Notes: generated from the sequence alone by a model not told the origin. 64,000 nt of DNA from Hydrogenophaga sp. (GCF_041913525.1 NZ_JAYSFD010000002.1:5186-69185), one strand, 5' to 3'; counted from the stretch's first letter, positions 7,363 through 22,039 are shown. Numbers and translations are program-made.

Positions 7363-7394
7363 GGGCGGGCTCCTGGAGAATGATGGGTGATTAT

Positions 7395-7407
7395 GAATAC
7401 AGTATAC
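7395..7407. promoter_or_regulatory. GTATAC-N-GTATAC-type palindrome, copy A1 (GAATAC A GTATAC)
   Basis: One mismatch to the 13-bp palindrome. It lies 33 nt upstream of the ggt start codon. Confidence 0.6.
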
Positions 7408-7420
7408 CGATTGAGCCGAT

Positions 7421-7462
7421 TCGATGGCGGTGAGTCGATGGCGGTGAGTCGATGGCGGGTGC
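7421..7462. repeat. 14-bp direct tandem repeat x2.9 (TCGATGGCGGTGAG)
   Basis: Units at 7421-7434 and 7435-7448 are identical. The unit at 7449-7462 is degenerate. Confidence 0.9.
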
Positions 7463-7503
7463 TGCCAAGCCACTTTCAACCGGTTCGGCGAGGGATTTTG
7501 GGT

Positions 7504-7519
7504 TGGCACGCTCCGTGCT
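7504..7519 (+). promoter_or_regulatory. Possible sigma-54 (-24/-12) promoter TGGCACG-N5-TGCT
   Basis: TGGCACGCTCCGTGCTT has GG and GC at the canonical 10-nt spacing. It faces the permease gene about 385 nt downstream. No enhancer-binding protein is present in the window. Confidence 0.35.
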
Positions 7520-7539
7520 TGATATCGGCTTGTGCATCG

Positions 7540-7552
7540 GTATACCGTATAC
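7540..7552. promoter_or_regulatory. GTATAC-N-GTATAC palindrome, copy A2 (perfect)
   Basis: GTATAC C GTATAC in the ggt/permease intergenic region. Confidence 0.7.
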
Positions 7553-7671
7553 ATGGTTAGCCAAAAGGTGCACAGGGAGTGGAAGCCGAAGAGAGGATGG
7601 TCTCCAGAGTGAAGAAATCGAATGCTTTGGCGTTCGACTTTGCATGGGAAAACCCTGAGCCTCTTCAAACT

Positions 7672-7684
7672 GTATGTTGTATAC
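7672..7684. promoter_or_regulatory. GTATAC-N-GTATAC-type palindrome, copy A3 (GTATGT T GTATAC)
   Basis: One mismatch. Located in the same intergenic region. Confidence 0.6.
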
Positions 7685-7705
7685 GATTCGGTGCGCAGGG
7701 ACGGA

Positions 7706-7723
7706 GGAAGCCCCAAAAAGGGG
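7706..7723 (+). promoter_or_regulatory. Shared leader element GGAAGCCCCAAAAAGGGG
   Basis: Near-identical to 15027-15045 (GGAAAGCCCCCAAAAGGCC). Both copies lie next to GTATAC palindromes and face the downstream + strand gene. Confidence 0.45.
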
Positions 7724-7903
7724 AAAGCGCACCCAAGTGGTGAATGCAGGAGAAGCGCCAGCGGGCGGATGGTCAGCGATCCGCCCGTTGCCAAACGAAG
7801 TGAAGTGAGGGAAAGCGCCGCGCCCGGTCAGGCATGACGGGGCGAGGTGACATCGCAACAGCGGGCCGGCCCACGACGGCTCATACCAATTTGATAGGTC
7901 AAC

Positions 7904-9430
7904 ATGGATTCCAACGTAACACTGACAGCTGCGCACTGGATGTACCTGATCGGGGTCATCAGCATCATCGTCACGATGATGTTCCGCGCCAACGTGCTGG
8001 TGCCGTCGATTGCCGCCACTTTTCTGGTGGCCTTCGCCTGGACCGGCAGCCCCATCGGGGCATTGGGCAGCATTTACAGCGCCAGCCTGGTGGCGGCCAA
8101 GGAGTTATTCAACATCTTCCTGGTCATTGCCTTGATGACGGCGCTGCTCAACAGCCTGAAGGACCTGAAGTCCGACATCCTGATGGTGCGGCCCTTCCGC
8201 GTGCTCATGAAGAACGGCACGGTGTCTTACCTGCTGCTGGGCCTGATCACCTACCTGATCTCGCTGTTCTTCTGGCCCACCCCGGCCGTGCCGCTGGTGT
8301 GCGCCGTGTTGTTGCCCGCCGCCATTGCCGCCGGCCTGCCCCCGCTGGTGGGCGCCGCTGCCGTGGCCATTGCCGGTCAGGGCATGGCGCTGTCGTCTGA
8401 CTACGTGATCGGCGTGGCGCCCATGATCAGCGCCAAGGCCGCCGGTGCCTCGGCCGCCGTGATTGGTGACCGCGCCCTGGTGCTGTCGCTCATCACTGGT
8501 GCCGTGGCCCTGCTGCTGGTGTACCTGTTCCAGCGCCGCACCTTCCAGCCGGCCAACCCGCTGCTGCTCAAGCGCTGGCAGGCCCTGGCCACCACGGGCG
8601 AACTGGTGAGCCACGAAGGCACCGCGCACAAGGCGGAAATCGCCCAAGGCACCAGCCACGAAGAAGACCTGTCCACCAACCAGAACATCGAACGCGAGCT
8701 GGCCTCGCTGCCGCCCGAGCAGGCCAAGTGGTCGCGCGTGTTCGCCCTGGTGACCCCGCTGGTGTTCCTGGTGATCGTGGTGCTGATGGCACTGCCCAAG
8801 TTCGGCGTGCCGCTGGGCGACCTCAAGGGTGGGGCGGCTGCCTCGCTGGTGGGCGGCGCTGCCGGCCTGCTGATGATCTTCGCCACCCTGGCCATGAAGG
8901 GCTCCAAGGGCATGCTGGAAGCCAGCGCCGACCACATCACCGAGGGTTTTGTGTTCGCCTTCCGCGCCATGGGTTCGGTGCTGCCGATCGCGGGCTTCTT
9001 CTTCCTGGGTGCCAGCGAATCCGCTGCCGCCATCTTTGGCACCGCCGCCAACCAGACGCCCAGTTTCCTGTTTGAGCTGGTGGCCGGCGCGCAGGACTGG
9101 ATTCCCCACAGCAAGGTTTTCGTGGCCTTCGGTCTGCTGATCGTGGGCATGGTCACCGGCATCGACGGTTCGGGCTTCTCTGGCCTGCCGCTGACCGGCG
9201 CACTGGCGGGCGCCATGGGCCCCGTCTCGAACATGGACTCAGCCACCCTGGCCGCGATCGGTCAGATGGGGGCCATCTGGACCGGGGGTGGGACGTTGAT
9301 TGCGTGGTCTTCGCTGATCGCCGTGGCCGGGTTCGCCCGTGTCTCGGTGACCGATCTGGTGAGGGCCTTGACGCTACCGGTATTGCTGGGCCTGAGCGCG
9401 GCCACCTTGGCCGCCGTGGTGATCTTCTGA
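7904..9430 (+). CDS. Polytopic membrane permease, IT-superfamily-like (NhaC/GntP/DcuC-type two-half architecture)
   Basis: 508 aa. Two hydrophobic halves are separated by a charged loop (HEGTAHKAEIAQGTSHEEDLSTNQNIERE). The exact family is not resolved by eye. Confidence 0.75.
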   Translation: MDSNVTLTAAHWMYLIGVISIIVTMMFRANVLVPSIAATFLVAFAWTGSPIGALGSIYSASLVAAKELFNIFLVIALMTALLNSLKDLKSDILMVRPFRVLMKNGTVSYLLLGLITYLISLFFWPTPAVPLVCAVLLPAAIAAGLPPLVGAAAVAIAGQGMALSSDYVIGVAPMISAKAAGASAAVIGDRALVLSLITGAVALLLVYLFQRRTFQPANPLLLKRWQALATTGELVSHEGTAHKAEIAQGTSHEEDLSTNQNIERELASLPPEQAKWSRVFALVTPLVFLVIVVLMALPKFGVPLGDLKGGAAASLVGGAAGLLMIFATLAMKGSKGMLEASADHITEGFVFAFRAMGSVLPIAGFFFLGASESAAAIFGTAANQTPSFLFELVAGAQDWIPHSKVFVAFGLLIVGMVTGIDGSGFSGLPLTGALAGAMGPVSNMDSATLAAIGQMGAIWTGGGTLIAWSSLIAVAGFARVSVTDLVRALTLPVLLGLSAATLAAVVIF

Positions 9431-9486
9431 TCGCCTGAGGCCCGACCAAAAAAACTGTTCAAAAACTGTCTGAGGAACTTGAAATC

Positions 9487-10524
9487 ATGATGAAGAAGAG
9501 CATCGTTCTGGTGGCCGCCACCTTGGCCACCGGCGCCGCCATGGCCCAGTCCAGCGTGACGCTGTATGGCCTGGCCGACATCTACCTGGCCAGCCAGAAA
9601 AACGCCGCCACCGGTCAGCGCGTGACCAAGCTGGAGAGCAGTGGCATCTACGAAAGCCGCTTTGGCTTCAAGGGCAGCGAAGACCTGGGCGGTGGCTACA
9701 AGGCCAACTTCCAGCTTGAGCAGGGCTTCGCCCTGGACGCCGGCACTGCCAGCACTGGCCAGGCCTTCAGCCGCCAGTCGTGGGTGGGCATCTCCGGTGG
9801 CTTTGGTGACGCGCGCTTCGGCAAGGCCTGGAGCGCCTTCGACGACGTGAGTGGCTCCACCCTGGCGGCCAAGAACTCGGTGCTGGCCCCCAACCAGGGC
9901 ACCTGGCTGACCACCTCGTACAAGGACAACCCGAACAACGGCCTGTACTACGCCACGCCCGAATTCGGCGGCCTGAGCGCGGCCGTGAGCTACGGCCTGG
10001 GCGAGAACAAGACGCCCACCACTGGTGCTGGCTCCATCACCAGCGTGCACGTGAAGTACGGCAAGGGCCCGCTGTTCGCGGCCGTGGCCTACCAGACGGA
10101 AAAGGCGACCTCGGCCGCCAAGGCGATCAACTTCACCCGCCTGAGTGGTTCGTACGACTTCGGCCCGGCCAAGCTGCTGGCCAGCTATGGTCGTGTCAGT
10201 CACGACGGCAGCCGCACCAACGAGTGGGCCCTGGGCGCCGACGTGCCCCTGGGCGGCGGCTGGCTGCTCTCGGGTGGCGTGGCCAACTCGAAGGGTGGCA
10301 TCACCGGTTTCACCGGCGACGCCAACTACACCGGCAAGCTCGTGAACACCGTGGCACCGGGTGCCGCCGATGTGAAGCGCACCGGTTACAGCGTCGCGGC
10401 CTTCTACAGCCTGAGCAAGCGCACCACCGTCTACGGTGGTTACCGCTCCAACACCACCAAGGTGCCGGGTGCTGCCGACCAGGACGGCAGCCTGCTGGCC
10501 GTGGGCATGCTGCACACCTTCTGA
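9487..10524 (+). CDS. Outer-membrane porin (Burkholderiales OmpC/Omp32-like)
   Basis: Signal peptide MMKKSIVLVAATLATGAAMA, then QSSVTLYGLADIY. Beta-strand periodicity throughout and a C-terminal ...GMLHTF. Confidence 0.92.
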   Translation: MMKKSIVLVAATLATGAAMAQSSVTLYGLADIYLASQKNAATGQRVTKLESSGIYESRFGFKGSEDLGGGYKANFQLEQGFALDAGTASTGQAFSRQSWVGISGGFGDARFGKAWSAFDDVSGSTLAAKNSVLAPNQGTWLTTSYKDNPNNGLYYATPEFGGLSAAVSYGLGENKTPTTGAGSITSVHVKYGKGPLFAAVAYQTEKATSAAKAINFTRLSGSYDFGPAKLLASYGRVSHDGSRTNEWALGADVPLGGGWLLSGGVANSKGGITGFTGDANYTGKLVNTVAPGAADVKRTGYSVAAFYSLSKRTTVYGGYRSNTTKVPGAADQDGSLLAVGMLHTF

Positions 10525-10575
10525 TCGAAAGGGGCCTCGACCCCTTGTTTCTCCGGTTGACTTCCTATGCTGTTT

Positions 10576-10602
10576 CACCGCGCCTCGGCGCGGTGTTTTT
10601 TT
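10576..10602 (+). terminator. Rho-independent terminator after the porin
   Basis: caccgcgcc-tc-ggcgcggtg followed by T8. Confidence 0.85.
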
Positions 10603-10633
10603 GCCCGAAAGCCGGGGCCGAAGCCCCGTGGCA

Positions 10634-11449
10634 TCAAGTCAGCCAGGCCGAATGAAGCATCTTGGCCGCCAGCACGAAGAGGAAGGCCGCGAACACCCGC
10701 TTGAGCGTGGCCACCGGCAGCCGTGCCGCCAGACGGGCGCCCACAGGGGCCATCAGCACGCCCGGAATCAACACACCCAGAAACGCCGGCAAATAAATGA
10801 AGCCCAGGCTGCCCGCTGGCAGATCCACTGTTCCGCGACCACCAATGAAGAACATCACCGCGCCCATGATGGCAATGGGCAGGCCCAGCGCCGCCGACGT
10901 GCCCACGGCGCGGTGCATGTTCACGTTGCACCAGGTCATGAAGGGCACCGAAAGAAAGCCGCCTCCGGCCCCCACCAGCTGCGACAGCGCGCTGATGGCC
11001 GTGCCCACGCCGGCCAGGCCGAGCGCGCCGGGCAACTGGCGCGTGGGCTTGGGCTTGGCGTTGAGGAACATCTGCAGCGCCGAGTACGAGACAAACACCG
11101 CGAACAGCATCGCCAGCGCGGTGGTGCTGAGCTGCTTGGCCAGCCAGCCGCCCACCAGGCCACCCAGCAGGATGCCCGGTGCGATGCCGCGCACGATGGA
11201 CCAGTCCACATTGCCCTTGGCGTGGTGGGTGCGCGCGCTGGAGATCGAGGTGAACACGATGATGGCCAGCGAGGTGCCCAGTGCCATGTGCACCAGCGAG
11301 GCGCGGGCAAAGCCCTGGGCCTCGAACAGCCAGGTGAGCAAAGGCACGAACAGCATGCCCCCGCCAATGCCCAGCAGGCCCGCGGCAAAACCACCGGCCA
11401 CGCCCAGGGCGAGGTAGGCGGGCAACCAATGCAAGAAATCGACGCTCAT
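10634..11449 (-). CDS. TauE/SafE-family (DUF81) anion exporter/permease
   Basis: Start trimmed to ATG 11449 (MSVDFLHWLPAYLALGVAGGFAAGLLGIGGG). 271 aa with about 8 TM and the duplicated GxGGG motifs typical of TauE. Confidence 0.88.
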   Translation of the reverse strand: MSVDFLHWLPAYLALGVAGGFAAGLLGIGGGMLFVPLLTWLFEAQGFARASLVHMALGTSLAIIVFTSISSARTHHAKGNVDWSIVRGIAPGILLGGLVGGWLAKQLSTTALAMLFAVFVSYSALQMFLNAKPKPTRQLPGALGLAGVGTAISALSQLVGAGGGFLSVPFMTWCNVNMHRAVGTSAALGLPIAIMGAVMFFIGGRGTVDLPAGSLGFIYLPAFLGVLIPGVLMAPVGARLAARLPVATLKRVFAAFLFVLAAKMLHSAWLT

Positions 11450-11576
11450 GAAAACTCCTTTGATGGAAGGGAAAGAAAGAATGGAAAAAACCACTGGTGG
11501 CTCACCGCCCCGCCCCTGGACAGGGGGCTCGCATAAAATTCGGGCGCCTCGGGCGGCGTTCTGCGCGGGCCCGCTC

Positions 11577-11588
11577 CATACAGTCGAC
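11577..11588. promoter_or_regulatory. Degenerate GTATAC-type half-palindrome (CATAC A GTCGAC) just upstream of the GntR gene
   Basis: Two mismatches to ATACAGTATAC, 18 nt before the GntR ATG. Weak. Confidence 0.25.
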
Positions 11589-11605
11589 CGAGAACACCAA
11601 GCGCC

Positions 11606-12259
11606 ATGACCCTGCTGAAGAAGGAAGCCACCCTGGGCGCCGCCCATTCGCCGCTGACCACGCTGGTGGTCGAGGCCTTGCGCGACCGCATCCTCAGCGG
11701 TGCCATTCCACCGGGCGAGCGCCTGGTGGAGAGCCGCCTCTCGGAAGAACTGGGGGTGTCGCGCATGCCGGTGCGCGAGGCGCTGCGGCAGCTCGCATCG
11801 GAAGGCCTGGTCACCATCGAGCCGCGCCGGGGCGCGTCGGTCACGTCGTTCAGCCCCGAGCAGGTGCGCGAACTGGTGGAAGTGCGCGCCACGCTCGAAG
11901 GCCTGAACGCCAAGCTGGCGGCCCAGCGCCACGACGCCCGGCAAATTGCCGAGATGGAAAAAATTCTGGAAGAGGGCGCGCGCCTGGCCGCGGTGGGCGA
12001 CCCGGCCACGCTGATGCAGATGAACCAGCGTTTTCACGACGCGCTGGGCAGCATCGCCGCCAATTCGGTGTTGCAAGAGATCATGCGGTCGCTGCGCGAC
12101 CGCACGGCCCTGCTGTTCGCGCCCATCAACCGCACGCGTGGCGAACAGAACTGGGACGAGCACGCGGCCATCCTGCGCGCGGTCATCAAGGGCGATGCCG
12201 AACTGGCCGCGCTGCTGGCCATGCGCCACGTGTACAACGCGGCGCAGATGGAGCCCTGA
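11606..12259 (+). CDS. GntR-family (FadR subfamily, FCD domain) transcriptional regulator
   Basis: HTH region GERLVESRLSEELGVSRMPVREALRQLASEGLVTIEPRRGASV, plus a helical FCD C-terminal domain. Confidence 0.92.
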   Translation: MTLLKKEATLGAAHSPLTTLVVEALRDRILSGAIPPGERLVESRLSEELGVSRMPVREALRQLASEGLVTIEPRRGASVTSFSPEQVRELVEVRATLEGLNAKLAAQRHDARQIAEMEKILEEGARLAAVGDPATLMQMNQRFHDALGSIAANSVLQEIMRSLRDRTALLFAPINRTRGEQNWDEHAAILRAVIKGDAELAALLAMRHVYNAAQMEP

Positions 12260-12284
12260 TCGGGCGGACGCGCGCCGCCGGCGC

Positions 12285-13202
12285 TCAGGCGCCGGCTTGC
12301 AGGCGCTGCCACACCAGACCGGCCAGGGCCACGTCTTCCAGGCCCACGCCGACCGACTTGTACAGCGTGATGGCGCTGTCGTCCTGGCGCCCCGGGTGTT
12401 GCCCGGTGACCAGTTCGCCCAGCTCCACGATCTGTTCTTCGCGCAGCACCTCGGGCGCGGCCAGCACCAGGTCGCCGGCCTCGCGCAGCGTCTGCGGTTT
12501 CCACTCCACCGCGATCACGCTGGCGCGCCGCAGGGCGGTGTCGTCCAGTTCGCGGGTGTGCGGCAGGCTGGAGCCGATGGCCGCCACGAAGGCGCCGGGC
12601 TTGAGTTGCGCACCGCCGAAGAGGGGTGTGGTCGAGCGCGAGGCGGTGACCACGATGTCGGCGTCGTCCACCGCTTCGTCGGCGCCACACAGGCGCACCG
12701 GCACGCCGCACAAGGCCTGCAGTTCCTCGGCCACCGTGGGGCTGGCGTAGGGATCGCACACGCGGATGTCGTGCAGCGCGAAGGCCTTGGCCATCTGCTG
12801 CGCGTGCATGCGACCCTGCACACCGGCGCCGAACAGGGCCAGGCGGCGCGCACCCGCGCGGGCCAGGTGGCGCGCCGCGATCACCGAGCAGGCGGCGGTG
12901 CGCAGCCGGGTGATGGCGCCCGCGTCGAATGAGGCCAGGGCGCGGCCGTCCACGGTGGAAAACAGCAGGATCACAAAAGTGAACTGGCCCTTGATGGTGG
13001 TGTAGACCTTGGCGCCGGCCACTTCCTGGCCGGGAATCACCGCGCCCAGGGTGGAGAGCTTCACCCCGCCCGCTTCGGTGCGGATGCGCTCTTGCATGGC
13101 GGCCTCGCCGCGCCCGAAGCGCTCGAAGGCGTCCAGCAGCACGGCCTGGGCCTGCTCGGGGGTGATGGTGGCGTCGACCACGGCGTCCGTGATGTGTTGC
13201 AT
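12285..13202 (-). CDS. Ornithine cyclodeaminase / mu-crystallin family NAD(P) enzyme (imine reductase or cyclodeaminase)
   Basis: 305 aa. GAITRLRTAACSVIAARHLAR and LALFGAGVQGRMH (Rossmann) are typical of OCD/mu-crystallin. Confidence 0.9.
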   Translation of the reverse strand: MQHITDAVVDATITPEQAQAVLLDAFERFGRGEAAMQERIRTEAGGVKLSTLGAVIPGQEVAGAKVYTTIKGQFTFVILLFSTVDGRALASFDAGAITRLRTAACSVIAARHLARAGARRLALFGAGVQGRMHAQQMAKAFALHDIRVCDPYASPTVAEELQALCGVPVRLCGADEAVDDADIVVTASRSTTPLFGGAQLKPGAFVAAIGSSLPHTRELDDTALRRASVIAVEWKPQTLREAGDLVLAAPEVLREEQIVELGELVTGQHPGRQDDSAITLYKSVGVGLEDVALAGLVWQRLQAGA

Positions 13203-13244
13203 GGCGGGTCCTTGAAAGGGAGTGAACAGGGGGAAGGGGGGGCC

Positions 13245-13994
13245 TCAGTGGCCGGTCAGCACCCGGGCCAGAATGCCCAGCGCGCCCAGGCCGGCCATGC
13301 CCAGCAGCAGCGCGCGCACCCGGGCCGCGGGCACGCGCCCCTTGAGCAGGCCCGAGACCAGAAAGCCGGCCAGCATCCAGGGCATGAGGATCAGGCTGAT
13401 GAGGAACTCGTGCGCGCCCATGCGGCCCACGGCGGTGAGCGCCGCGATCGACACGGCCGAGCCAATGAAGAAGATGGCGCCAAAAGTGCCGCGCAGGCGA
13501 TCGGCCGGCATGTGCTGCATGGCAATGGCAAAGGGCGGTGCGCCCACCGAGGTGATGGTGCCCATCACGCCCGAGGCCAGCCCGGCAATGGTGGTGTTGC
13601 GCAGCGTGGGCATCACGCGCCAGCCAGACAGGCTCAGGCCCACGCCGCTGAGGATCAGCACAGCGAACAGCACCGACAGCGTCTGCGCAGAGAGCAGCGT
13701 CAGGCTGACGGCGGCCACACCGGTGCCCACCACCCGGCCCACCAGGGCCAGGCGCGCCATGGGCCATTCAATGGAGCGGCGGTCGCGCATGCCTGTCATG
13801 AGCGCCAGCGGGCAGCTCAGCACCAGCATGGGGCCGGGCACCAGTTCGGGGAACCAGAGCGCGGCCAGGGGCGAGGCGAACATGGCAAAGCCCAGGCCAC
13901 TGACGCCCTGCAGGCAGGCGCCCACCAGCACCAGGCTGCCCATGGCGAGCAGACGGTCCCAGCCGATGCTGTTCAGCAGATCCAGAAGCGCCAT
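13245..13994 (-). CDS. Second TauE/SafE-family membrane protein
   Basis: Start trimmed to ATG 13994 (MALLDLLNSIGWDRLLAMGSLVLVGACLQGVSGLGFAMF). 249 aa, polytopic. It lies 13 nt downstream of the ferredoxin gene. Confidence 0.82.
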   Translation of the reverse strand: MALLDLLNSIGWDRLLAMGSLVLVGACLQGVSGLGFAMFASPLAALWFPELVPGPMLVLSCPLALMTGMRDRRSIEWPMARLALVGRVVGTGVAAVSLTLLSAQTLSVLFAVLILSGVGLSLSGWRVMPTLRNTTIAGLASGVMGTITSVGAPPFAIAMQHMPADRLRGTFGAIFFIGSAVSIAALTAVGRMGAHEFLISLILMPWMLAGFLVSGLLKGRVPAARVRALLLGMAGLGALGILARVLTGH

Positions 13995-14007
13995 GGCCGC
14001 GTGCGCC

Positions 14008-14286
14008 TCACCACGAGACGGCGATGTCTCCGCGCACGAAGGTCTGGCAGGCCATGCGGTAGCCGGCCGCGATGTCCTCATCGCTCAGGTGCTTGCGCTC
14101 CTTGGCCTTGACCTCGTCGGTGTGCTCCAGCCCTTGCTCGATGCGGCACTTGCAGGTGCCGCACAGGCCACCGCCGCACTTGAACGGAATGCCGCCCTTT
14201 TCGCGCAGCGACACGCGCAGCAGGTTGCTGTTGTCGGGCGCGCTGGCGACCTTGTGCTCGTTGTTGATGAAGGTGATCTGGATCAT
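14008..14286 (-). CDS. Plant-type [2Fe-2S] ferredoxin (Fdx-2)
   Basis: 92 aa with a CGGGLCGTC...C(RMACQ) = C-x4-C-x2-C...C cluster motif. Its start overlaps the upstream gene stop (ATGA). Confidence 0.9.
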   Translation of the reverse strand: MIQITFINNEHKVASAPDNSNLLRVSLREKGGIPFKCGGGLCGTCKCRIEQGLEHTDEVKAKERKHLSDEDIAAGYRMACQTFVRGDIAVSW

Positions 14287-14615
14287 GGCTGAACAGAAAG
14301 AGGGCGGCTGATGTCGGCAAGGGCCACTGGCACGAGTTCGGCCTGCATCGCCCCGAATGAGCAGAGGTGGTGAAGCTCGCGCCGGGCGGCGTCGAGGGTG
14401 GAGAAAGACTCCAGGAACTTGGAGGGCACGGCGTTGACGGTGACCGGCTCGGTCTCGTCGATGACGCGCACCCGCGTGGGGTTGAGCAGCTCGGCCACCA
14501 CGAAGCGCGCGCGCAGGCGGCCATAAAAGCGGTAGTCGTAGGCTTCCACCGGGTTCAGGCCGGGGCCCGCTTCGCTGCGGAACTGCCCGGGTTTGGAGGT
14601 CAGGATGACGTACAT
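14283..14615 (-). CDS. 110-aa conserved-looking orphan protein between two ferredoxin genes
   Basis: Start trimmed to ATG 14615 (MYVILTSKPGQFRSEAGPGLNPVEAYDYRFYG...). No Cys cluster and no signal peptide. Translationally coupled to Fdx-2. Confidence 0.7.
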   Translation of the reverse strand: MYVILTSKPGQFRSEAGPGLNPVEAYDYRFYGRLRARFVVAELLNPTRVRVIDETEPVTVNAVPSKFLESFSTLDAARRELHHLCSFGAMQAELVPVALADISRPLSVQP

Positions 14616-14635
14616 GGCGCGGTCCTTGCGTGGGG

Positions 14636-14926
14636 TTATTCCTGCACGAGCTCGATGTCGTGCTCCAGCCAGAGCTGGCAGGTCAGGCGATAGCCCTGAT
14701 CGAGCCGCTCGCCCAGCTGCTTCTTCTCTTTCCAGTTGGGTGGGGGCAGGTGCTCGGCACCTGCCAGCACCCGCGTGGCGCACTTGGAGCACTTGCCCAT
14801 GCCGCACTCGTATTTCAGGTGGGGAAAGGGAAATTCCTTGATGCCGGCGCGCACCACCAGATTGGTTTGCGGTTTGACCTCGCCTTGGTAGGTCTGGCCG
14901 TTCTTGTGGAAGGTGACGATGGGCAT
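14636..14926 (-). CDS. Plant-type [2Fe-2S] ferredoxin (Fdx-1)
   Basis: Start trimmed to ATG 14926 (MPIVTFHKNGQTYQGEV). 96 aa with CGMGKCSKC...C(LTCQ) = C-x4-C-x2-C...C. Confidence 0.9.
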   Translation of the reverse strand: MPIVTFHKNGQTYQGEVKPQTNLVVRAGIKEFPFPHLKYECGMGKCSKCATRVLAGAEHLPPPNWKEKKQLGERLDQGYRLTCQLWLEHDIELVQE

Positions 14927-14972
14927 GGTGAGGGGGCTTTCGGAGGCCTGAAAAATCGGTTGCGTTGAGCTC

Positions 14973-14987
14973 AGTATACAGTATACT
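14973..14987. promoter_or_regulatory. Perfect 15-bp palindrome AGTATAC A GTATACT (copy B1)
   Basis: Located in the divergent Fdx-1 / HDO intergenic region. Confidence 0.75.
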
Positions 14988-15026
14988 TTAATCGAGTCAA
15001 CGCCAATCACCCGGTCAAAAGGGAAT

Positions 15027-15045
15027 GGAAAGCCCCCAAAAGGCC
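15027..15045 (+). promoter_or_regulatory. Shared leader element GGAAAGCCCCCAAAAGGCC
   Basis: Counterpart of 7706-7723. It lies between palindromes B1 and B2. Confidence 0.45.
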
Positions 15046-15065
15046 TTCCTATTGGCGCAGTCTCG

Positions 15066-15078
15066 GTATACTGTATAC
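15066..15078. promoter_or_regulatory. Perfect palindrome GTATAC T GTATAC (copy B2)
   Basis: 73 nt upstream of the HDO start codon. Confidence 0.75.
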
Positions 15079-15150
15079 GCTGCCTGCGGTTGGCCCGTTC
15101 CGGACAGGTGCCGGCAGACATCCACCCCACTCTTCATTCAGGAGCCTTTC

Positions 15151-15882
15151 ATGTCTCAACTGTTGAACCGCGATGAATTCCGGACCGCCCTCGAAAACGC
15201 CATCAAGGGCAAGAGCGCCAACCAGTCGCCCTTTAGCCTGGCCTGGGCCGGTGGCACCCTCAGCCGCGAGCACCTGGCGCGCTGGGCCGAGAACCACTAC
15301 CACTACGTGGGCCCTTTCGCCGACTACCTGGGCTACCTCTACGCCCGCACCCCCGACCACATGACCGAGGCCAAGGACTTCCTGCTGGCCAACATGTACG
15401 AAGAGGAAATCGGTGGCGACCGTCACACCGACCTGCTGATCCGCTTCGCCGAGGCCTGCGGCACCACCCGTGAGCGCGTGGTTGACCCCGACAACATGTC
15501 GCCCACCACCCGTGGCCTGCAAAGCTGGTGCTACGCCGTGGCCATGCGCGAAGACCCCGTGGTCGCCGTGGCCGGCCTCGTGGTGGGCCTGGAGTCGCAA
15601 GTGCCCTCGATCTACCGCAAGCAAACCCCCACCCTGCGCGAGAAGTACGGCTTCACCGACGAAGAAGTGGAGTTCTTCGACCTGCACATCGTCTCGGATG
15701 AGATCCACGGCGAGCGCGGCTACCAGATCGTGCTGGAGCACGCCAACACCATCGAGCTGCAACAGCGCTGCCTGAAGATTTGCGAGATCGGTGCCCAGAT
15801 GCGCCTGCTCTACACCACCGCGCTCTACAACGACTACGTGGCCCCCACCCTGGACAAGCCCTCGCTGGCCCTGGCCGCCTGA
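15151..15882 (+). CDS. PqqC-fold heme-oxygenase-like diiron oxidase/oxygenase (HDO; iron-containing redox enzyme family)
   Basis: Start at ATG 15151 after the caGGAGcc RBS. 243 aa with PqqC-like N-terminal helices. The full ligand pattern is E85-x6-H92 ... E148 ... H179-x3-D183-x2-H186. Confidence 0.85.
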   Translation: MSQLLNRDEFRTALENAIKGKSANQSPFSLAWAGGTLSREHLARWAENHYHYVGPFADYLGYLYARTPDHMTEAKDFLLANMYEEEIGGDRHTDLLIRFAEACGTTRERVVDPDNMSPTTRGLQSWCYAVAMREDPVVAVAGLVVGLESQVPSIYRKQTPTLREKYGFTDEEVEFFDLHIVSDEIHGERGYQIVLEHANTIELQQRCLKICEIGAQMRLLYTTALYNDYVAPTLDKPSLALAA

Positions 15883-15990
15883 TCGCCATTCAGTGACCTC
15901 AAGCGCCGCCTGAGCGCTTGCTGAGCCGGACGGGCGCGTGCGCGCCCGTCCTCTCCCCCTCCCGACATCCGATCCCGGAGCCGTCCTTCC

Positions 15991-17442
15991 ATGCAGACCG
16001 AAGAATTCCTCAACTACATCAATGGCGAATGGGTGAAGTGCCGCAGCGGTCGAACCTTCGACAACATGAACCCGGCCGACACCCGTGAGCTGGTGGGACG
16101 CTTTCAAGCCTCCACCGCGCTGGACGCTGAAGACGCCGTGAACGCCGCCGCCGCCGCCTTTGATGGCTGGCGCCGCACGCCGGTGGGCCAGCGCGCCCGC
16201 CTGCTCAACAAGGCCGCCGACTACCTGGAGGCCAACGCCCAGCGCTTTGGCGAAGAGCTCAGCCGGGAAGAGGGCAAATCGGTCGCCCTGGGCAAGGACG
16301 AGTTCGTGCGCGCCGCGCAGACCTTTCGCTTCTACGCCACCGAAGGCCAGACCTTTGGCGGTGAAACCTATGTGCAAGACGACCCCGACCTGATGGTCTA
16401 CAGCCAGCGCGAGCCGCTGGGGGTGGTCTCGGTGATCTCGCCCTGGAACTTTCCGGCCTCCATCCCGGCGCGCAAGATCGCGCCAGCGCTGGTCACGGGT
16501 AACACCATCGTCTTCAAGCCCTCGTCTGACGCGCCCCTGAGCGGCCTGCGCCTGGTCGAGGCGCTGGTGCACGCCGGCCTGCCGGCGGGCGTCATCAACT
16601 ACATCACCGGCCGCGCCGGCGACGTGGGCCCCATCATCACCACCTCGCAGGCCATTCGCGCCATTTCCTTCACCGGCTCCACCCAGGCGGGCATGCACAT
16701 CCACCGCACGGTGCACCTGACCACGCGCCTGCAGATGGAACTGGGCGGCAAGAACCCGCTGATCGTGATGGAAGACGCCGACCTGGACAAGGCGGTGGAC
16801 CTGGCCATCAAGGGCGGCTTCTCGCTCACCGGGCAGGCCTGCACCGGCACCAGCCGCGTGATCGTGATGAAGGCCGTGAAGGAAGACTTCACCCAGCGCC
16901 TGGTGGCCAAGGTGAAGGGCCTGAAGATCGGCCCTGGTCACCAGCCAGGCATGGACCTCGGCCCCCTGGCCACCGCCAAGCAACTGGAGACGGTGCTGTC
17001 CTACATCGCCATCGGCCGCGCAGAGGCGCAACTGCTGTGCGGCGGCGAGCGCCTGCAAGACGGCGAGTACGCACACGGCTACTACGTGACGCCCGCCATT
17101 TTTGACGGCGTGACGCAAAAGGCTCGCATCGCTCGCGAAGAAATCTTCGGCCCGGTGATCGCCATCCTGGAGGCCGAGTCTTTTGAGCAGGCCATGGCCA
17201 TGGCCAACGACAGCGAGTACGGCCTCTCGGCCGCCATCGCCACGCGCAACCCGCGCTACATCCACCAGTTCTCCAACGACATCCAGTCGGGCACGGTGAA
17301 GATCAACCGGACCACCACCGGCAACCTCATCAACGCACCCTTCGGCGGCGTGAAGAACTCCAGCACCTCCACCTTCCGCGAGTCTGGCCGCGTGGGCCTG
17401 GAGTTCTTCACCCAGACCAAGGTCGTTTACCGCGGCCTCTGA
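15991..17442 (+). CDS. NAD(P)-dependent aldehyde dehydrogenase
   Basis: 483 aa with ALDH motifs (ISPWNFP, FTGST, ELGGKNP, catalytic Cys in GQACTG). Confidence 0.93.
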   Translation: MQTEEFLNYINGEWVKCRSGRTFDNMNPADTRELVGRFQASTALDAEDAVNAAAAAFDGWRRTPVGQRARLLNKAADYLEANAQRFGEELSREEGKSVALGKDEFVRAAQTFRFYATEGQTFGGETYVQDDPDLMVYSQREPLGVVSVISPWNFPASIPARKIAPALVTGNTIVFKPSSDAPLSGLRLVEALVHAGLPAGVINYITGRAGDVGPIITTSQAIRAISFTGSTQAGMHIHRTVHLTTRLQMELGGKNPLIVMEDADLDKAVDLAIKGGFSLTGQACTGTSRVIVMKAVKEDFTQRLVAKVKGLKIGPGHQPGMDLGPLATAKQLETVLSYIAIGRAEAQLLCGGERLQDGEYAHGYYVTPAIFDGVTQKARIAREEIFGPVIAILEAESFEQAMAMANDSEYGLSAAIATRNPRYIHQFSNDIQSGTVKINRTTTGNLINAPFGGVKNSSTSTFRESGRVGLEFFTQTKVVYRGL

Positions 17443-17479
17443 ACGCCGCCCATTCCCTTACCGATACCCGAGAACCGCC

Positions 17480-17959
17480 ATGAAGACTTCCCTGAAACTG
17501 CAACTCGACGAAGCCCGCCGCATGGCCGCCGCCGCGCTGGACAAGGCCCAGGCCCTGGGCGTGCCCGAGACCGTGTGCATCACCGACGAAGGCGGCTTTC
17601 CGCTGGTGCTTGAGCGCATGGACGGCGCCCGCGTGACTGGCCCGCAAATCGCTTGGAACAAGGCCTTCACCGCCGCCGGCCACAAGCGTTCCACCCACCT
17701 CTTCAACACCGCGCCCAACGGCCCCGCGCTGCCTGGCAACGAGGCCTTCGGCATCCAGTGGAGCTTCGAGGGCAAGTTCGCCGTGTTCGTCGGCGGCTTC
17801 CCCATCGTGGTGAATGGCGAGGTGGTGGGCGGCGTGGGCCTGAGCGGCGGCAACGGCGAGCAAGACACCGCCTGCGGCCTGGCCGCCCTGCAAGCCCTCA
17901 AGGACCTGCTGGCTCCCAGCGGCCAGGACGTCCTGGTGCAGGCCGACATCAAGAAGTGA
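17480..17959 (+). CDS. GlcG/HbpS-family (DUF336) heme-binding-like protein
   Basis: 159 aa. ...VCITDEGGFPLVLERMDGA... and GGFPIVVNGEVVGGVGLSGG are hallmark GlcG motifs. Confidence 0.88.
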   Translation: MKTSLKLQLDEARRMAAAALDKAQALGVPETVCITDEGGFPLVLERMDGARVTGPQIAWNKAFTAAGHKRSTHLFNTAPNGPALPGNEAFGIQWSFEGKFAVFVGGFPIVVNGEVVGGVGLSGGNGEQDTACGLAALQALKDLLAPSGQDVLVQADIKK

Positions 17960-17976
17960 GCACCGAGGAGCGCGCC

Positions 17977-18981
17977 ATGGCACACCGCGTCACTTGGCTG
18001 GAAACCGGCCAGGCCTTCGAGGCACAGGCCGACGAACCCGTGCTGTCGGCCGCGCTGCGCTGCTCGGTCGAGCTGCAGCACGACTGCCGCTTCGGTGGCT
18101 GCGGCACCTGCCGGGTCAAGCTGGTGGAGGGCCGCGTCGAGTACGACGAGCTGCCCATGGGCCTGAGCGAAGAAGAGGCCGAGGCCGGCTATGCCCTGCT
18201 GTGCCAGGCACGCGCCTGCTCTGACCTGGTCATCAGCGCCGAGCCCTTGCAGGGCTGCAGCCCGCCCACGCGCCTGCTGGCCTGCGTCACCGAGGTGTGC
18301 GCGCTGGCCGATGACGTCACCCACCTGCGCCTGGAGCTGCCCGACGACAGCCTGCAGTTCCGCCCCGGCCAGTACATGAACGTGCTGCTCGAAGACGGCA
18401 GCCACCGCAGCTTCTCCATGGCCTCGCGCCCGCAAGGCGCGGTGGTGGACTTTCACGTGCGCCGCATCGACGGCGGGCGCTTCACCGACCACGCCGTGCG
18501 CGCCCTGCAAGTGGGCGACGCGCTGGAGGTGGAGCTGCCTCTGGGCGGCTTTCACCTGCACACCCAAGACTACCGGCCCCTGGTGATGATGGCCACCGGC
18601 ACCGGCCTGGCCCCGCTCAAAAGCATGCTGGAGTCGCTGATGGACGACCCCGACTGCCCACCCGTGAGCCTTTACTGGGGCGCGCGCACCGAGGCCGACC
18701 TGTACCTCGATGCCGAGATCCGCACCTGGGGTGAGCGCCTGTACGAGTTCCGCTACGAGCCGGTGCTCTCCCGCGCGTCGGCGGGCTGGGCCGGCCGGCG
18801 CGGTCATGTGCAAGACGCGGTGCTGCAAGACGTGCAAGACCTGGGCGAGTGCGCCTTTTACTTGTGCGGCTCGCCGGCCATGATCGCCGACGCCCGGGCA
18901 GCCCTTATCGCCCGAGGCGCCGACCCCGACTTCATCTACACCGACAGCTTCCTGTTCCAGCACGAGCCGGCCACGGCCTGA
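17977..18981 (+). CDS. [2Fe-2S]-FAD-NAD(P)H oxidoreductase (N-terminal plant-type ferredoxin fused to an FNR-like module)
   Basis: Start at ATG 17977 (MAHRVTWLETGQ). CRFGGCGTC...C motif, RSFSMAS flavin motif and MMATGTGLAP NAD motif. The architecture matches oxygenase reductases of the MmoC/DmpP/AscD type. Confidence 0.9.
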   Translation: MAHRVTWLETGQAFEAQADEPVLSAALRCSVELQHDCRFGGCGTCRVKLVEGRVEYDELPMGLSEEEAEAGYALLCQARACSDLVISAEPLQGCSPPTRLLACVTEVCALADDVTHLRLELPDDSLQFRPGQYMNVLLEDGSHRSFSMASRPQGAVVDFHVRRIDGGRFTDHAVRALQVGDALEVELPLGGFHLHTQDYRPLVMMATGTGLAPLKSMLESLMDDPDCPPVSLYWGARTEADLYLDAEIRTWGERLYEFRYEPVLSRASAGWAGRRGHVQDAVLQDVQDLGECAFYLCGSPAMIADARAALIARGADPDFIYTDSFLFQHEPATA

Positions 18982-19105: not shown

Positions 19106-19711
19106 ATGAAACTCTTTTTCAGCCCCGGCGCCTGCTCGCTGTCGCCCCGCATCGTCCTGGAAGAACTCGGCTTGCCCTACGAGTCCGAGCGCGTGGACCT
19201 CAAGGCCAAGAAGACCGCCAGCGGCGCCGACTACGCCGCCCTCAACCCCAAGGGTTATGTGCCCGCGCTGCAACTCGACAGCGGCGAGCTGCTCACCGAA
19301 GGCCCGGCCATCGTGCAGTACCTGGCCGACCAGGTGCCCGCCAAGGGCCTGGCGCCGGCCAACGGTACCCTGGCGCGCTACCAGTTGCAAAGCTGGCTCA
19401 CCTTCATCGGCACCGAGCTGCACAAGAACTTCAGCCCCTTCTTCAACCCCGCCGCCAGCGACGACTGGAAGGCCGGCGCCCGCGCCAACCTGGAGCGCCG
19501 CCTGGCCTACGTGAACGAGCAACTGGCCAGCCGCCCCTACCTGATGGGCGATGCCTTCAGCGTGGCCGACGCCTACCTCTTCGTGGTGCTGAGCTGGACG
19601 CGCATGCTCAAGATCGACCTGGCGCCGTGGCCCAACGTGGCCGCCTTCCTGGCCCGCGTGGGCCAGCGCCCGGCCGTGCAGGCCGCGCTGAAGGCCGAGG
19701 GCCTGGCGTGA
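19106..19711 (+). CDS. Glutathione S-transferase (beta class, GstA-like)
   Basis: Start at ATG 19106 (MKLFFSPGACSLSPRIVLEELGLPYE). 201 aa. Confidence 0.9.
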   Translation: MKLFFSPGACSLSPRIVLEELGLPYESERVDLKAKKTASGADYAALNPKGYVPALQLDSGELLTEGPAIVQYLADQVPAKGLAPANGTLARYQLQSWLTFIGTELHKNFSPFFNPAASDDWKAGARANLERRLAYVNEQLASRPYLMGDAFSVADAYLFVVLSWTRMLKIDLAPWPNVAAFLARVGQRPAVQAALKAEGLA

Positions 19712-20154
19712 GCGCCTACCAGTTGCCCCCCGGCTTTGCCGACGGCGTGACCGTGCTGCACAACCCGCGCTGCGGCACCTCGCGCAATGTGCTGGCGCTG
19801 ATCCGCCACGCCGGCATCGAGCCGGTGGTGGTGGAGTACCTCAAGACCCCGCCCAGCCGCGAGCAACTGCTGGCCCTGCTGGCCGCCATGGGCGTGGGTG
19901 TCCGTGAGGTGTTGCGCGCCAAAGAGGCTGTTTGTGCCGAGTTGGGGCTGGACCGGCCCGGTGTGAGCGACGAGGCCATTCTGGACGCCATCGGCCAGCA
20001 CCCGGTGCTGCTGAACCGGCCCATCGTGGTCACGCCGCGTGGCGCGGCCCTGTGCCGGCCCTCCGAGCGCGTGCTGGACCTGCTGCCCCCGCTGCCTGGC
20101 CCCTTCACCAAGGAAGACGGCGAGCGCGTGGTTGACCCGCGCACACCGGCCTGA
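19708..20154 (+). CDS. arsC: ArsC/Spx-family arsenate reductase (glutaredoxin-coupled type)
   Basis: The GTG start overlaps the gst stop (GTGA). LHNPRCGTSRNVL catalytic Cys motif and LLNRPIV motif. Confidence 0.85.
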   Translation: MSAYQLPPGFADGVTVLHNPRCGTSRNVLALIRHAGIEPVVVEYLKTPPSREQLLALLAAMGVGVREVLRAKEAVCAELGLDRPGVSDEAILDAIGQHPVLLNRPIVVTPRGAALCRPSERVLDLLPPLPGPFTKEDGERVVDPRTPA

Positions 20155-20349: not shown

Positions 20350-21027
20350 ATGCCTCGCTTCATCGCCTCTTCTCTTGTCACCACGGCCCGCGCCCGCTGG
20401 CGGCACGGGTTCGTTCTCGTGCTGCTGGCCTGGCTGCCCGTGCTGGCCTCGGCCCAGGCCCGGGGCGAGGCACGCGCCGAGGCGCTGTACCGCCAGCATT
20501 GCGCCCAGTGCCACGGGGCCAACAAGCAGGGCGGGCCCGGTGTGCCCGACCTGTCGGGCGGTCTGGCGGCCTGGGGCCGCAGCGCCGAGTCCATCGCACA
20601 GACCATTCGCCACGGCATTCGCGTGCCCGGCCATGCGGCCACCCGGGGCGGCATCATGCCCGCCTTCAAGACCAATGCCGCCGAGTTCTCCGACGACGAG
20701 GTGCACGAACTGGTGGAATACCTCTTGCAACTGCGCCAGCAGCCGGCCGATGCCGCCGCCGCTTTGCGCGGCAAAGCCAACTTTGAATGGTGCGTGGCCT
20801 GCCACGGCCAGGACGCGCGCGGCAACACCAGCGTGGGCGGCCCCAACCTGCTGGCGCCGCGCCTGCAATACGGCGCCACGCGCCAGGCCCTGTTCGAGAG
20901 CATCGCCCAGGGCCGTGCCGGCACCTGCCCGCCCTGGGAAGGGCGCCTGGATGCCGCCGACATCGACACCCTGGCCCGTCACCTCGCTGGCGGCATGGCG
21001 AAGTCGCCCTCTCAATCCCAACCCTGA
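20350..21027 (+). CDS. Diheme c-type cytochrome (CcoP-like soluble domains)
   Basis: 225 aa with a signal/anchor (FVLVLLAWLPVLASAQA) and two CxxCH motifs (CAQCH, CVACH). No obvious SD, so the start is uncertain. Confidence 0.85.
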   Translation: MPRFIASSLVTTARARWRHGFVLVLLAWLPVLASAQARGEARAEALYRQHCAQCHGANKQGGPGVPDLSGGLAAWGRSAESIAQTIRHGIRVPGHAATRGGIMPAFKTNAAEFSDDEVHELVEYLLQLRQQPADAAAALRGKANFEWCVACHGQDARGNTSVGGPNLLAPRLQYGATRQALFESIAQGRAGTCPPWEGRLDAADIDTLARHLAGGMAKSPSQSQP

Positions 21028-21033
21028 AACACC

Positions 21034-21513
21034 ATGAGCCTGATCGAACGGGTAGACGCCAGCGCCTACGCGGAGTGGATTCGCAACTCCGACATCCTGT
21101 ACCCCCTGCTGCAGGTGGTGCACATCATCGGCATCTCCATCGTGGTGGGCTCGCTCATCGCGGGCAATGTGCGAGTGCTCGGCGCCGCCCGCGACCTGCC
21201 GCTGCGCGATTTTTCGCGCCACCTCTACCGCTGGGTGCTGGTGGGGCTGGTGCTGTTCCTGCTGACCGGCGTGCACATGGCGGTGGCCTTTCTGCACATC
21301 TTCGCCGTCAACCCGGTGATGGGCATCAAGCTGGTGCTGCTGGCACTGGCCGTGGCCGTCAACGTCTATCTGTACCGCTGGCAGTTCGCGGCAGCGGTGG
21401 CCCCGACCCAGGCCGGCGCACGCCAGAAGGCGTTGGCGGCGCTGTCGGTGCTCTTGCTGCTGACCATCATCGTGATGGGCAAGTTGCTGGCCTACATCGG
21501 CGGCAAAGACTGA
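21034..21513 (+). CDS. 4-TM membrane protein of unknown function (paralog 1)
   Basis: 159 aa. It aligns with the next gene (H-I/L-x-G...VG...LR-V/L-LG...LP...NP...KLVL). Confidence 0.75.
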   Translation: MSLIERVDASAYAEWIRNSDILYPLLQVVHIIGISIVVGSLIAGNVRVLGAARDLPLRDFSRHLYRWVLVGLVLFLLTGVHMAVAFLHIFAVNPVMGIKLVLLALAVAVNVYLYRWQFAAAVAPTQAGARQKALAALSVLLLLTIIVMGKLLAYIGGKD

Positions 21514-21547: not shown

Positions 21548-22039
21548 ATGACCGAATTCCTGCTTCAACTCAAATACTCCGCCTACGGCACCTGGGTCGG
21601 CACCTCGCTCTGGGGCTACGCCATCTTCGAGAGCCTGCACCTGATGGGCGTGGCCCTGCTGGTGGGCGCCATCACCCTCACCGACCTGCGCCTGCTGGGT
21701 TTCTCGCGCGTGCTGCCGGTGACGCTCACCGAGAAGTACTTGCTGCCCTGGGTGTGGTCGGGCTTCGCCATCGTGGTGTTCAGCGGCGTGAGCATGTTCA
21801 TCACCGACGGTTCTTACTTTCTGGAGAACCCCTTCCTGCTGTCCAAGCTGGTGCTCATCGTGCTGGCCGGGCTGAACGCGGGCTTCTTCCAGTTCCGTGT
21901 GCACCGCAGCGTGGCGGCCTGGGACGCCCAGCAGCCTTCGCCCGCGCTGGCCCGCCTGTGCGCGGCCCTGTCCATCGGCTTCTGGTTCCTGGCCGTGGCC
22001 TGCGGCCGCCTGATCGCCTACCCCGAACTCTGGTCCTGA
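21548..22039 (+). CDS. 4-TM membrane protein of unknown function (paralog 2)
   Basis: 163 aa, paralogous to 21034-21513. Confidence 0.75.
   Translation: MTEFLLQLKYSAYGTWVGTSLWGYAIFESLHLMGVALLVGAITLTDLRLLGFSRVLPVTLTEKYLLPWVWSGFAIVVFSGVSMFITDGSYFLENPFLLSKLVLIVLAGLNAGFFQFRVHRSVAAWDAQQPSPALARLCAALSIGFWFLAVACGRLIAYPELWS

Follow-up and report, generated by a model that had tools for sequence, protein, structure and literature searches.

Introduction

Heme-oxygenase-like diiron enzymes (HDOs) form a fast-growing family that has been studied almost wholly in natural-product biosynthesis with artificial reductants, and they are normally assayed with surrogates such as phenazine methosulfate (PMS)/NAD(P)H or spinach ferredoxin/FNR (PMC13061610). 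The first report of one dedicated reductase for an HDO dates only from 2026, when MboA, the HDO acetylenase of mangotoxin biosynthesis, was found to require MboB, a flavin/Fe2S2 reductase of the BenC/T4moF class; this dedicated Fe2S2-flavin reductase is needed for the second turnover, and it is a mark of such a pair that chemical mediators do not take the place of the reductase (PMC13185094). Here a stretch of 64,000 nucleotides (nt) from Hydrogenophaga sp. (GCF_041913525.1 NZ_JAYSFD010000002.1:5186-69185), called the window and used as the coordinate frame, was analysed around the gene of an HDO that stands together with genes for two plant-type [2Fe-2S] ferredoxins (Fdx1 and Fdx2), a reductase with ferredoxin and FNR modules (Fdx-FNR), an aldehyde dehydrogenase (ALDH) and a small protein of 110 residues (orf110). 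Judged from its sequence, the region probably codes for a diiron oxygenase of several components that depends on NADH, has the HDO as its catalytic subunit and is set inside a GntR-repressed catabolic regulon of about 5890-18981, a reading in which we place moderate confidence.

MboA/MboB resembles the present locus in that the gene of a canonical 3-His/3-carboxylate HDO adjoins one for a reductase of the BenC/T4moF class, which in MboAB is the specific redox partner. Compared by description, MboA/MboB is a two-protein pair of a small biosynthetic cluster with a tripeptide substrate, whereas the present locus further encodes orf110, a DUF336 protein and a pair of free ferredoxins, and takes the form of a seemingly repressor-controlled, catabolic-looking regulon in hundreds of species. 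The initial annotation of the locus, made from the sequence alone, had held that no characterised HDO possesses a dedicated linked reductase, a statement outdated by this pair (PMC13185094). UndA, BesC, SznF and RohS belong to the same PF14518 superfamily and have the same core ligand set but are without linked redox partners and were assayed with surrogate reductants. CADD (CT610; 1rcw, 8va9) and the related entry 9pj4 are the nearest solved relatives, with the six metal ligands in register; CADD works alone, whereas the present HDO has a conserved partner set, a catabolic context, and Ser and Gln at the sacrificial positions. Literature searches on the cluster and on HDO-ferredoxin systems found no characterisation, and MboAB was the sole relevant precedent.

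A second comparison is offered by the bacterial multicomponent monooxygenases (BMMs), such as soluble methane monooxygenase (sMMO; MmoXYZ/B/C) and phenol hydroxylase (DmpLNO/M/P), in which electrons pass from NADH through an Fdx-FNR reductase to a carboxylate-bridged dimetal site and a small cofactor-less protein is encoded alongside. The catalytic fold of these enzymes is ferritin-like, whereas that of the present subunit is the heme-oxygenase fold. Genes were identified by an open reading frame (ORF) map and by profile searches against Pfam and NCBIfam, and among the ORFs scanned in 1-22 kb no ferritin-like four-helix-bundle hydroxylase was found, the only oxygenase candidate being the PF14518/PF03070 protein. 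Two further differences are that orf110 has no detectable similarity to MmoB or DmpM, and that the extra ferredoxins are plant-type, whereas the ferredoxin of four-component toluene monooxygenases is of the Rieske type. The resemblance to the ferritin-like multicomponent monooxygenases is read, by analogy, as functional only. The earlier idea that an HDO recruited a BMM-style electron-delivery and effector set is supported as far as the genetic coupling of reductase and ferredoxins goes, while its effector part found no support.

The HDO catalytic subunit

The HDO falls within its superfamily profile, matching Haem_oxygenas_2 (PF14518) with 129.7 bits against a gathering cut-off of 28.9, and it also matches TENA/THI-4/PQQC (PF03070) more weakly. 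HDOs are defined by a 3-His/3-carboxylate set that lies on core helices 1-3, and in the CADD crystal the cofactor is fully occupied (bioRxiv 10.1101/2020.07.29.227702). In the present protein the pattern reads E85-x6-H92, E148 and H179-x3-D183-x2-H186, with the codon of E85 at 15403 and that of H186 at 15706-15708. These six residues, which the initial annotation had picked out as a complete set with CADD-type spacing, were found in register with the metal positions of CADD and invariant in a 13-sequence alignment and among 11 members of the family.

The nearest solved structures are those of Chlamydia CADD/4-aminobenzoate synthase (1rcw, 8va9; E ~1e-16), with an identity to CADD of 28-30%, and the related entry 9pj4; similarity to UndA is marginal (E 0.5-0.7). 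The best NCBIfam match, TIGR04305, gave 94 bits against a cut-off of 200, and the PqqC model TIGR02111 gave 51.6 bits against 240, both short of equivalog level. In CT610 numbering the sacrificial residues of CADD are Tyr27 and Lys152; their counterparts in the present protein are Ser29 and Gln158, and neither Tyr nor Lys occupies these sites across the family. Since the ligands are in register, the equivalog cut-offs are missed and Tyr27 and Lys152 are replaced, the protein is assigned on sequence grounds to the CADD branch as a putative metal-binding HDO with another job, neither a PqqC nor a CADD equivalog.

A conserved gene set around the HDO

A scan of one genome per species found close relatives of the HDO encoded in at least 549 species genomes, with hosts in Hydrogenophaga, Variovorax, Achromobacter, Bordetella, Cupriavidus, Paraburkholderia, Noviherbaspirillum, Azospirillum, Bradyrhizobium and others; protein searches added Aminobacter, the gamma-proteobacterium Billgrantia and Poseidonocella. 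For synteny, 85 loci around the HDO were fetched and neighbours within 10 kb were counted. Fdx1, orf110 and Fdx2 are present as a block in 80 of these loci, belonging to several proteobacterial classes, and at least four of the five loci without the trio lie on contigs too short or truncated to show it. Partner genes were counted for the GntR regulator in 76 loci, the GlcG/DUF336 protein in 75, ALDH in 73, Fdx-FNR in 69, a 508-residue membrane protein (memb508) in 62, the TauE permease in 52 and the OCD-family enzyme in 47. Synteny of the ferredoxin and reductase genes with the HDO in related genomes, proposed as a check by the initial annotation, is thus seen for the trio and for Fdx-FNR alike. 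Gene order and orientation vary between lineages while the gene set is retained, which argues for selection on co-occurrence and not for inheritance of one arrangement.

The HDO is itself strongly conserved across the loci, with a median identity of 89% (range 86-96%), far above its partners; the medians are 55% for orf110, 59% for Fdx-FNR and 61% for memb508 (62 loci). The combination of HDO, two ferredoxins, reductase, orf110 and ALDH under one presumed repressor is a real and widely conserved bacterial gene set. An HDO identity of 75-96% across proteobacterial classes, together with the wide spread, points to a role in primary catabolism. In the RefSeq annotation of a plasmid-borne copy of the cluster, only generic names are given.

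Aminobacter aminovorans (locus L081) carries two HDO paralogues, at 10001-10759 and 19215-19943 of that locus and thus some 9 kb from each other; both show 84-85% identity to the HDO of the window, and each has the operator motif described below upstream. Downstream of one paralogue come Fdx-orf-Fdx-ALDH-TauE-OCD, downstream of the other GlcG and Fdx-FNR.

Ferredoxins and reductase

Fdx-FNR has the domain order of the MmoC/DmpP-type reductases, with an N-terminal plant-type [2Fe-2S] domain followed by FAD and NAD(P)H domains. Its matches to the BenC model (198 bits) and to MmoC (182 bits) both fall below the equivalog cut-off and express class-level similarity only. In the window its gene stands in the same operon as that of the HDO, which gives the linkage of an HDO to an NAD(P)H-flavin-Fe2S2 reductase gene known from MboAB. 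The cluster-binding cysteines are almost invariant: all 80 loci keep C41, C46 and C49 of Fdx1, and 79 of them keep C83; in Fdx2, C37, C42, C45 and C80 are kept in all 80; and in Fdx-FNR, C37, C42 and C45 are kept in 68 of 69 loci and C76 in all 69. Three conserved [2Fe-2S] modules and one FNR module are therefore linked to the HDO in many genomes, in agreement with the original view that the HDO is coupled to a three-cluster set of its own. The locus offers what appears to be a natural, complete electron-delivery chain for an HDO, by which the cellular reduction of labile dimetal sites becomes directly testable.

The companion protein orf110

No Pfam or NCBIfam match was obtained for orf110, even at E 0.1-1, and its profile had no match among PDB sequences; neither a conserved Cys across loci nor a cofactor motif was found. 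An alignment-based AlphaFold2 (AF2) model (pLDDT 91) is predicted to consist mainly of beta strands with one helix, a single-sequence model (pLDDT 51) having been discarded, and a Foldseek search of the PDB with this model gave no match at E<=0.001. Two identities were considered for orf110 and rejected. A degenerate ferredoxin was dismissed as hhalign shows no relation to Fdx1 or Fdx2, though NCBI labels some homologues 'ferredoxin'. The MmoB/DmpM-like effector that the initial annotation had seen in this protein was likewise dropped, with no relation in Pfam/NCBIfam, in PDB sequences or, by Foldseek, in predicted fold, so that the likeness to a BMM-type effector stands as an analogy only.

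An exhaustive profile search of 1.84 billion representatives returned only 107 clusters of orf110 homologues, almost all of them stand-alone proteins of ~100 residues. One metagenomic protein of 204 residues (P0243) is a clean orf110-Fdx2 fusion joined by a Pro/Ala-rich linker of ~20 residues. All seven examined contigs with remote homologues have HDO, Fer2 and/or GlcG genes alongside, and the metagenomic contig L089 carries a 13-gene colinear operon in the order HDO-ALDH-GlcG-FdxFNR-Fdx-orf110-Fdx-TauE-TauE-GntR-RidA-517aa-GGT. Based on the gene neighbourhoods of the remote homologues and on the fusion, orf110 is regarded as an obligate, specific companion of the HDO, confined to this gene set, and it probably binds Fdx2. 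Three other apparent fusions were given no weight: those with a response-regulator domain (P0278) and a transpeptidase domain (P0298) look like assembly chimeras, and P0343 is a frame-shifted read-through with an HDO fragment.

Operator motif and extent of the regulon

The motif GTATACnGTATAC, which we take to be typical of operators of the GntR/FadR type, occurs with at most one mismatch at four sites in the 64-kb window, against 0 expected, and these lie only in two divergent regions (Table 1). In nearly all loci the HDO is preceded, at a distance of 53-200 base pairs (bp) and mostly of 55-100 bp, by a site with at most two mismatches, and in other genomes operator sites also precede memb508 (many loci), Fdx1, OCD, TauE, ALDH and an amidase gene. 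The operator shared by both divergent regions suggests a single GntR-controlled regulon of ~13 kb, of which the GntR/FCD protein, by its domains, is the presumed repressor. The porin is syntenic in Hydrogenophaga loci and is placed in the unit tentatively, by position only. The initial annotation had confined the system to 12285-18981; the genes it named are real but make up only part of the unit, as it had overlooked the porin, the transporter and the GGT-like hydrolase together with the shared GntR operator. In the intergenic region of Fdx1 and HDO, a terminator-like hairpin with a T-run was observed at 15027-15049 on the minus strand, between the two operator sites.

Accessory genes and clues to the chemistry

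The ALDH is nearest to 2,5-dioxovalerate/alpha-ketoglutarate-semialdehyde dehydrogenases (NF052305, 542 bits; NF042993, 533 bits), both matches lying below the cut-off. The OCD-family enzyme is likewise below every NCBIfam cut-off; it stands nearest to pyrroline-/piperideine-2-carboxylate reductases and has iminosuccinate reductase and archaeal alanine dehydrogenase as further relatives, and a near-orthologue in the PDB (3hdj, E 1.5e-112) is named 'probable ornithine cyclodeaminase' with no function assigned. Elsewhere its slot is filled by an aspartate dehydrogenase (in the gamma-type clusters) or by RidA (in L089), and this alternation points to an amino- or imino-acid intermediate. The suggestion made with the initial annotation, that an aldehyde and/or imine product would be handled by the ALDH and the OCD-family enzyme, fits this context.

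The GGT-like protein scored 249 bits against TIGR00066, whose cut-off is 358. In 22 of the 85 loci (23 of 86 sequences when the window is counted) a homologue is encoded no more than 10 kb from the HDO, and in L089 and L093 the gene is in the HDO operon itself. An AS-family amidase is part of the cluster in 15 loci (Cupriavidus, Azospirillum, Paraburkholderia, Aminobacter), and a creatininase-family enzyme in the gamma-type clusters. The presence of three unrelated amidohydrolase types across lineages suggests that an amide bond is probably cut. In some Hydrogenophaga loci (L043 at 10752-11633, also L044) an alpha/beta-hydrolase gene, absent from the window, lies between those of HDO and ALDH.

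The GlcG protein is 73-94% identical across the 75 loci that have it, and its PDB relatives include an EfgA entry, NahX of a naphthalene pathway and the C-terminal domain of PduO. EfgA is a formaldehyde-binding sensor, and the kinship to it fits an aldehyde-forming step; DUF336 proteins may be recurrently linked to aldehyde-forming pathways. For memb508 no Pfam, NCBIfam or PDB sequence match was found and RefSeq lists it as 'hypothetical protein'; it has the appearance of a family of transporters not yet classified. Together, orf110 and memb508 are two protein families without detectable relatives outside this system.

In almost every case the cluster includes an anion exporter, either TauE or a split ChrA-like pair, and in alpha-proteobacterial loci TauE lies within the operon. 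Release of sulfite or a similar oxyanion is entertained as a hypothesis only. Ten Achromobacter loci carry a gene for a sulfite-oxidase-family molybdoenzyme (Oxidored_molyb and Mo-co_dimer) 1-2 kb upstream of the HDO (in L011 at 7711-8943).

Proposed mechanism and alternative explanations

In the mechanism that we propose, electrons would pass from NAD(P)H through FAD and the [2Fe-2S] cluster of the reductase to Fdx1 and/or Fdx2 and on to the dimetal site, which would activate O2, with orf110 bound to Fdx2 as an adaptor or gating subunit. The HDO would oxidise a small anionic amino compound at a carbon adjacent to a heteroatom, and this compound would enter through the porin and the 508-residue permease. 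The amide bond would be cut by the GGT-like hydrolase, or in other lineages by the AS-family amidase or the creatininase-family enzyme. The oxidation product is expected to collapse to an aldehyde, which the ALDH would oxidise and GlcG possibly handle; the OCD-family enzyme would process the amino or imino acid, and TauE would export the released oxyanion, possibly sulfite.

Most likely the oxygenase acts in the breakdown of a small nitrogen-containing compound, possibly an anionic amino compound in amide linkage from which an oxyanion is set free. The substrates considered, none of which is claimed, were sulfonates of the taurine or homocysteate type, gamma-glutamyl amines, derivatives of arginine or ornithine, and analogues of proline. 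Naming the substrate would fill a metabolic gap in common soil, clinical (Achromobacter, Bordetella) and marine bacteria. A more far-reaching proposal, which we put forward only tentatively, is that HDO, two plant-type ferredoxins, Fdx-FNR, orf110 as an adaptor of novel fold and the DUF336 protein constitute a new oxygenase class performing oxygenolytic carbon-heteroatom cleavage (e.g. desulfonation to aldehyde and sulfite), the key step of a widespread, unrecognised catabolism of an abundant amide-linked amino compound.

Several points weigh against the multicomponent oxygenase that we favour. Some alpha-proteobacterial loci have no Fdx-FNR gene within 10 kb of the HDO, and the Billgrantia locus seems to be without Fdx1. 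Three [2Fe-2S] centres for a single two-electron delivery exceed the needs of any known diiron system, so that one ferredoxin may have a different function. The term 'diiron' is an assumption, since the cofactor of CADD, the nearest solved relative, is heterobimetallic Fe/Mn. None of the steps has a chemical assignment, since ALDH, OCD and GGT each score short of equivalog level, and the idea of sulfite draws on the family names of exporters and on one lineage-specific neighbour.

Among the alternatives, the one with most weight, although it is still rather unlikely, is that the HDO is an oxidase/desaturase or a C-C lyase of the UndA, BesC or MboA type and not a hydroxylating monooxygenase. 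The substrate would then give two electrons and the ferredoxin chain the other two for the reduction of O2 to water, and the chain may also restore the reduced cofactor from one turnover to the next. Cleavage of the BesC type sets an aldehyde free, which would suit the ALDH and the EfgA-like GlcG. Characterised HDO desaturases need an external reductant and MboA needs its dedicated reductase (PMC13185094), and the CADD branch is without the extra carboxylate typical of N-oxygenases (bioRxiv 10.1101/2020.07.29.227702). Such an oxidase or lyase would nevertheless share its redox-chain architecture with the multicomponent oxygenase that we favour; only the chemistry differs, and the sequence separates neither from the other.

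It is less probable still that the part played by the ferredoxins and reductase is confined to activation or repair of the metal site, in the manner of YfaE with ribonucleotide reductase, or that they serve an enzyme encoded elsewhere. The weak NCBIfam matches to YfaE of the ferredoxin domain of the reductase (40 bits) and of Fdx2 (20 bits), the excess of clusters and the sometimes unlinked reductase would suit such a function. However, no version of the cluster encodes another redox enzyme in need of low-potential electrons, four conserved proteins would be costly for occasional repair, and the trio never separates from the HDO. The notion that the HDO makes 4-aminobenzoate by self-sacrifice in the way of CADD, or serves some other biosynthesis, amid unrelated housekeeping neighbours is very improbable, for although CADD supplies its nearest structures and its best NCBIfam match, the score, the low identity and the replaced sacrificial residues all speak against it, as does a setting that looks catabolic, in which a GntR repressor, a permease, a porin and the ALDH have an operator in common.

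Gene map and flanking genes

The features of the regulon are collected in Table 1. All ten genes were recovered by the ORF map and profile searches, with the domains named in the initial annotation, as were the divergent, tightly packed operons around the region between Fdx1 and HDO (14927-15150, 224 bp). In the minus operon the gaps are 20 nt for Fdx1-orf110, 13 nt for Fdx2-TauE and 42 nt for TauE-OCD, and the orf110/Fdx2 junction is a genuine ATGA overlap; a limit of 20 nt or less, as first given for this operon, therefore applies to all but the TauE-OCD gap. The gaps of the plus operon are 108 nt (HDO-ALDH), 37 nt (ALDH-GlcG) and 17 nt (GlcG-Fdx-FNR).

Table 1. Genes and operator-like sites of the regulon, in window coordinates
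Feature	Position	Strand	Remarks
GGT-like Ntn amidohydrolase, cytoplasmic, 490 aa, without signal peptide	5890-7362	-	PF01019 E 1.5e-101; start codon read
Operator-like site GAATACAGTATAC (1 mismatch)	7395-7407		33 nt upstream of GGT start
Operator-like site GTATACCGTATAC	7540-7552		GGT/memb508 divergent region
memb508, 508-aa polytopic membrane protein, unclassified, presumed importer	7904-9430	+	
Outer-membrane porin	9487-10524	+	56 nt 3' of memb508
GntR/FCD-family regulator, presumed repressor	11606-12259	+	PF00392 + PF07729
OCD/mu-crystallin family enzyme (imine reductase / amino-acid dehydrogenase type)	12285-13202	-	PF02423 E 1e-50
TauE/SafE (TSUP) family anion permease	13245-13994	-	PF01925 E 4e-18; start codon read
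Fdx2, plant-type [2Fe-2S] ferredoxin, 92 aa	14008-14286	-	Fer2 E 4e-14
orf110, 110 aa, small, without cofactor motif	14283-14615	-	no family match
Fdx1, plant-type [2Fe-2S] ferredoxin, 96 aa	14636-14926	-	Fer2 E 1.7e-9
Operator-like site GTATACAGTATAC	14974-14986		overlaps sigma-70-like promoter of minus operon
Operator-like site GTATACTGTATAC	15066-15078		73 nt upstream of HDO start
HDO catalytic subunit, 243 aa	15151-15882	+	PF14518 E 1.4e-37
NAD(P)-dependent aldehyde dehydrogenase (ALDH)	15991-17442	+	PF00171 E 7e-159
GlcG/DUF336 (HbpS-like) protein	17480-17959	+	PF03928 E 1e-34
Fdx-FNR reductase, 334 aa	17977-18981	+	Fer2 + FAD_binding_6 + NAD_binding_1

Genes for glutathione S-transferases (GSTs) flank the regulon on both sides, at 5236-5853 on the minus strand and 19109-19711 on the plus strand. 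They are worth mention beside a GGT-like gene, but their position is probably coincidental, since the other loci show only distant GST homologues (29-34% identity). Outside the regulon, a di-haem-type cytochrome c is encoded at 20350-21027 and is followed by small membrane-protein ORFs at 21034-21513 (no Pfam match) and 21548-22039 (DUF6644).

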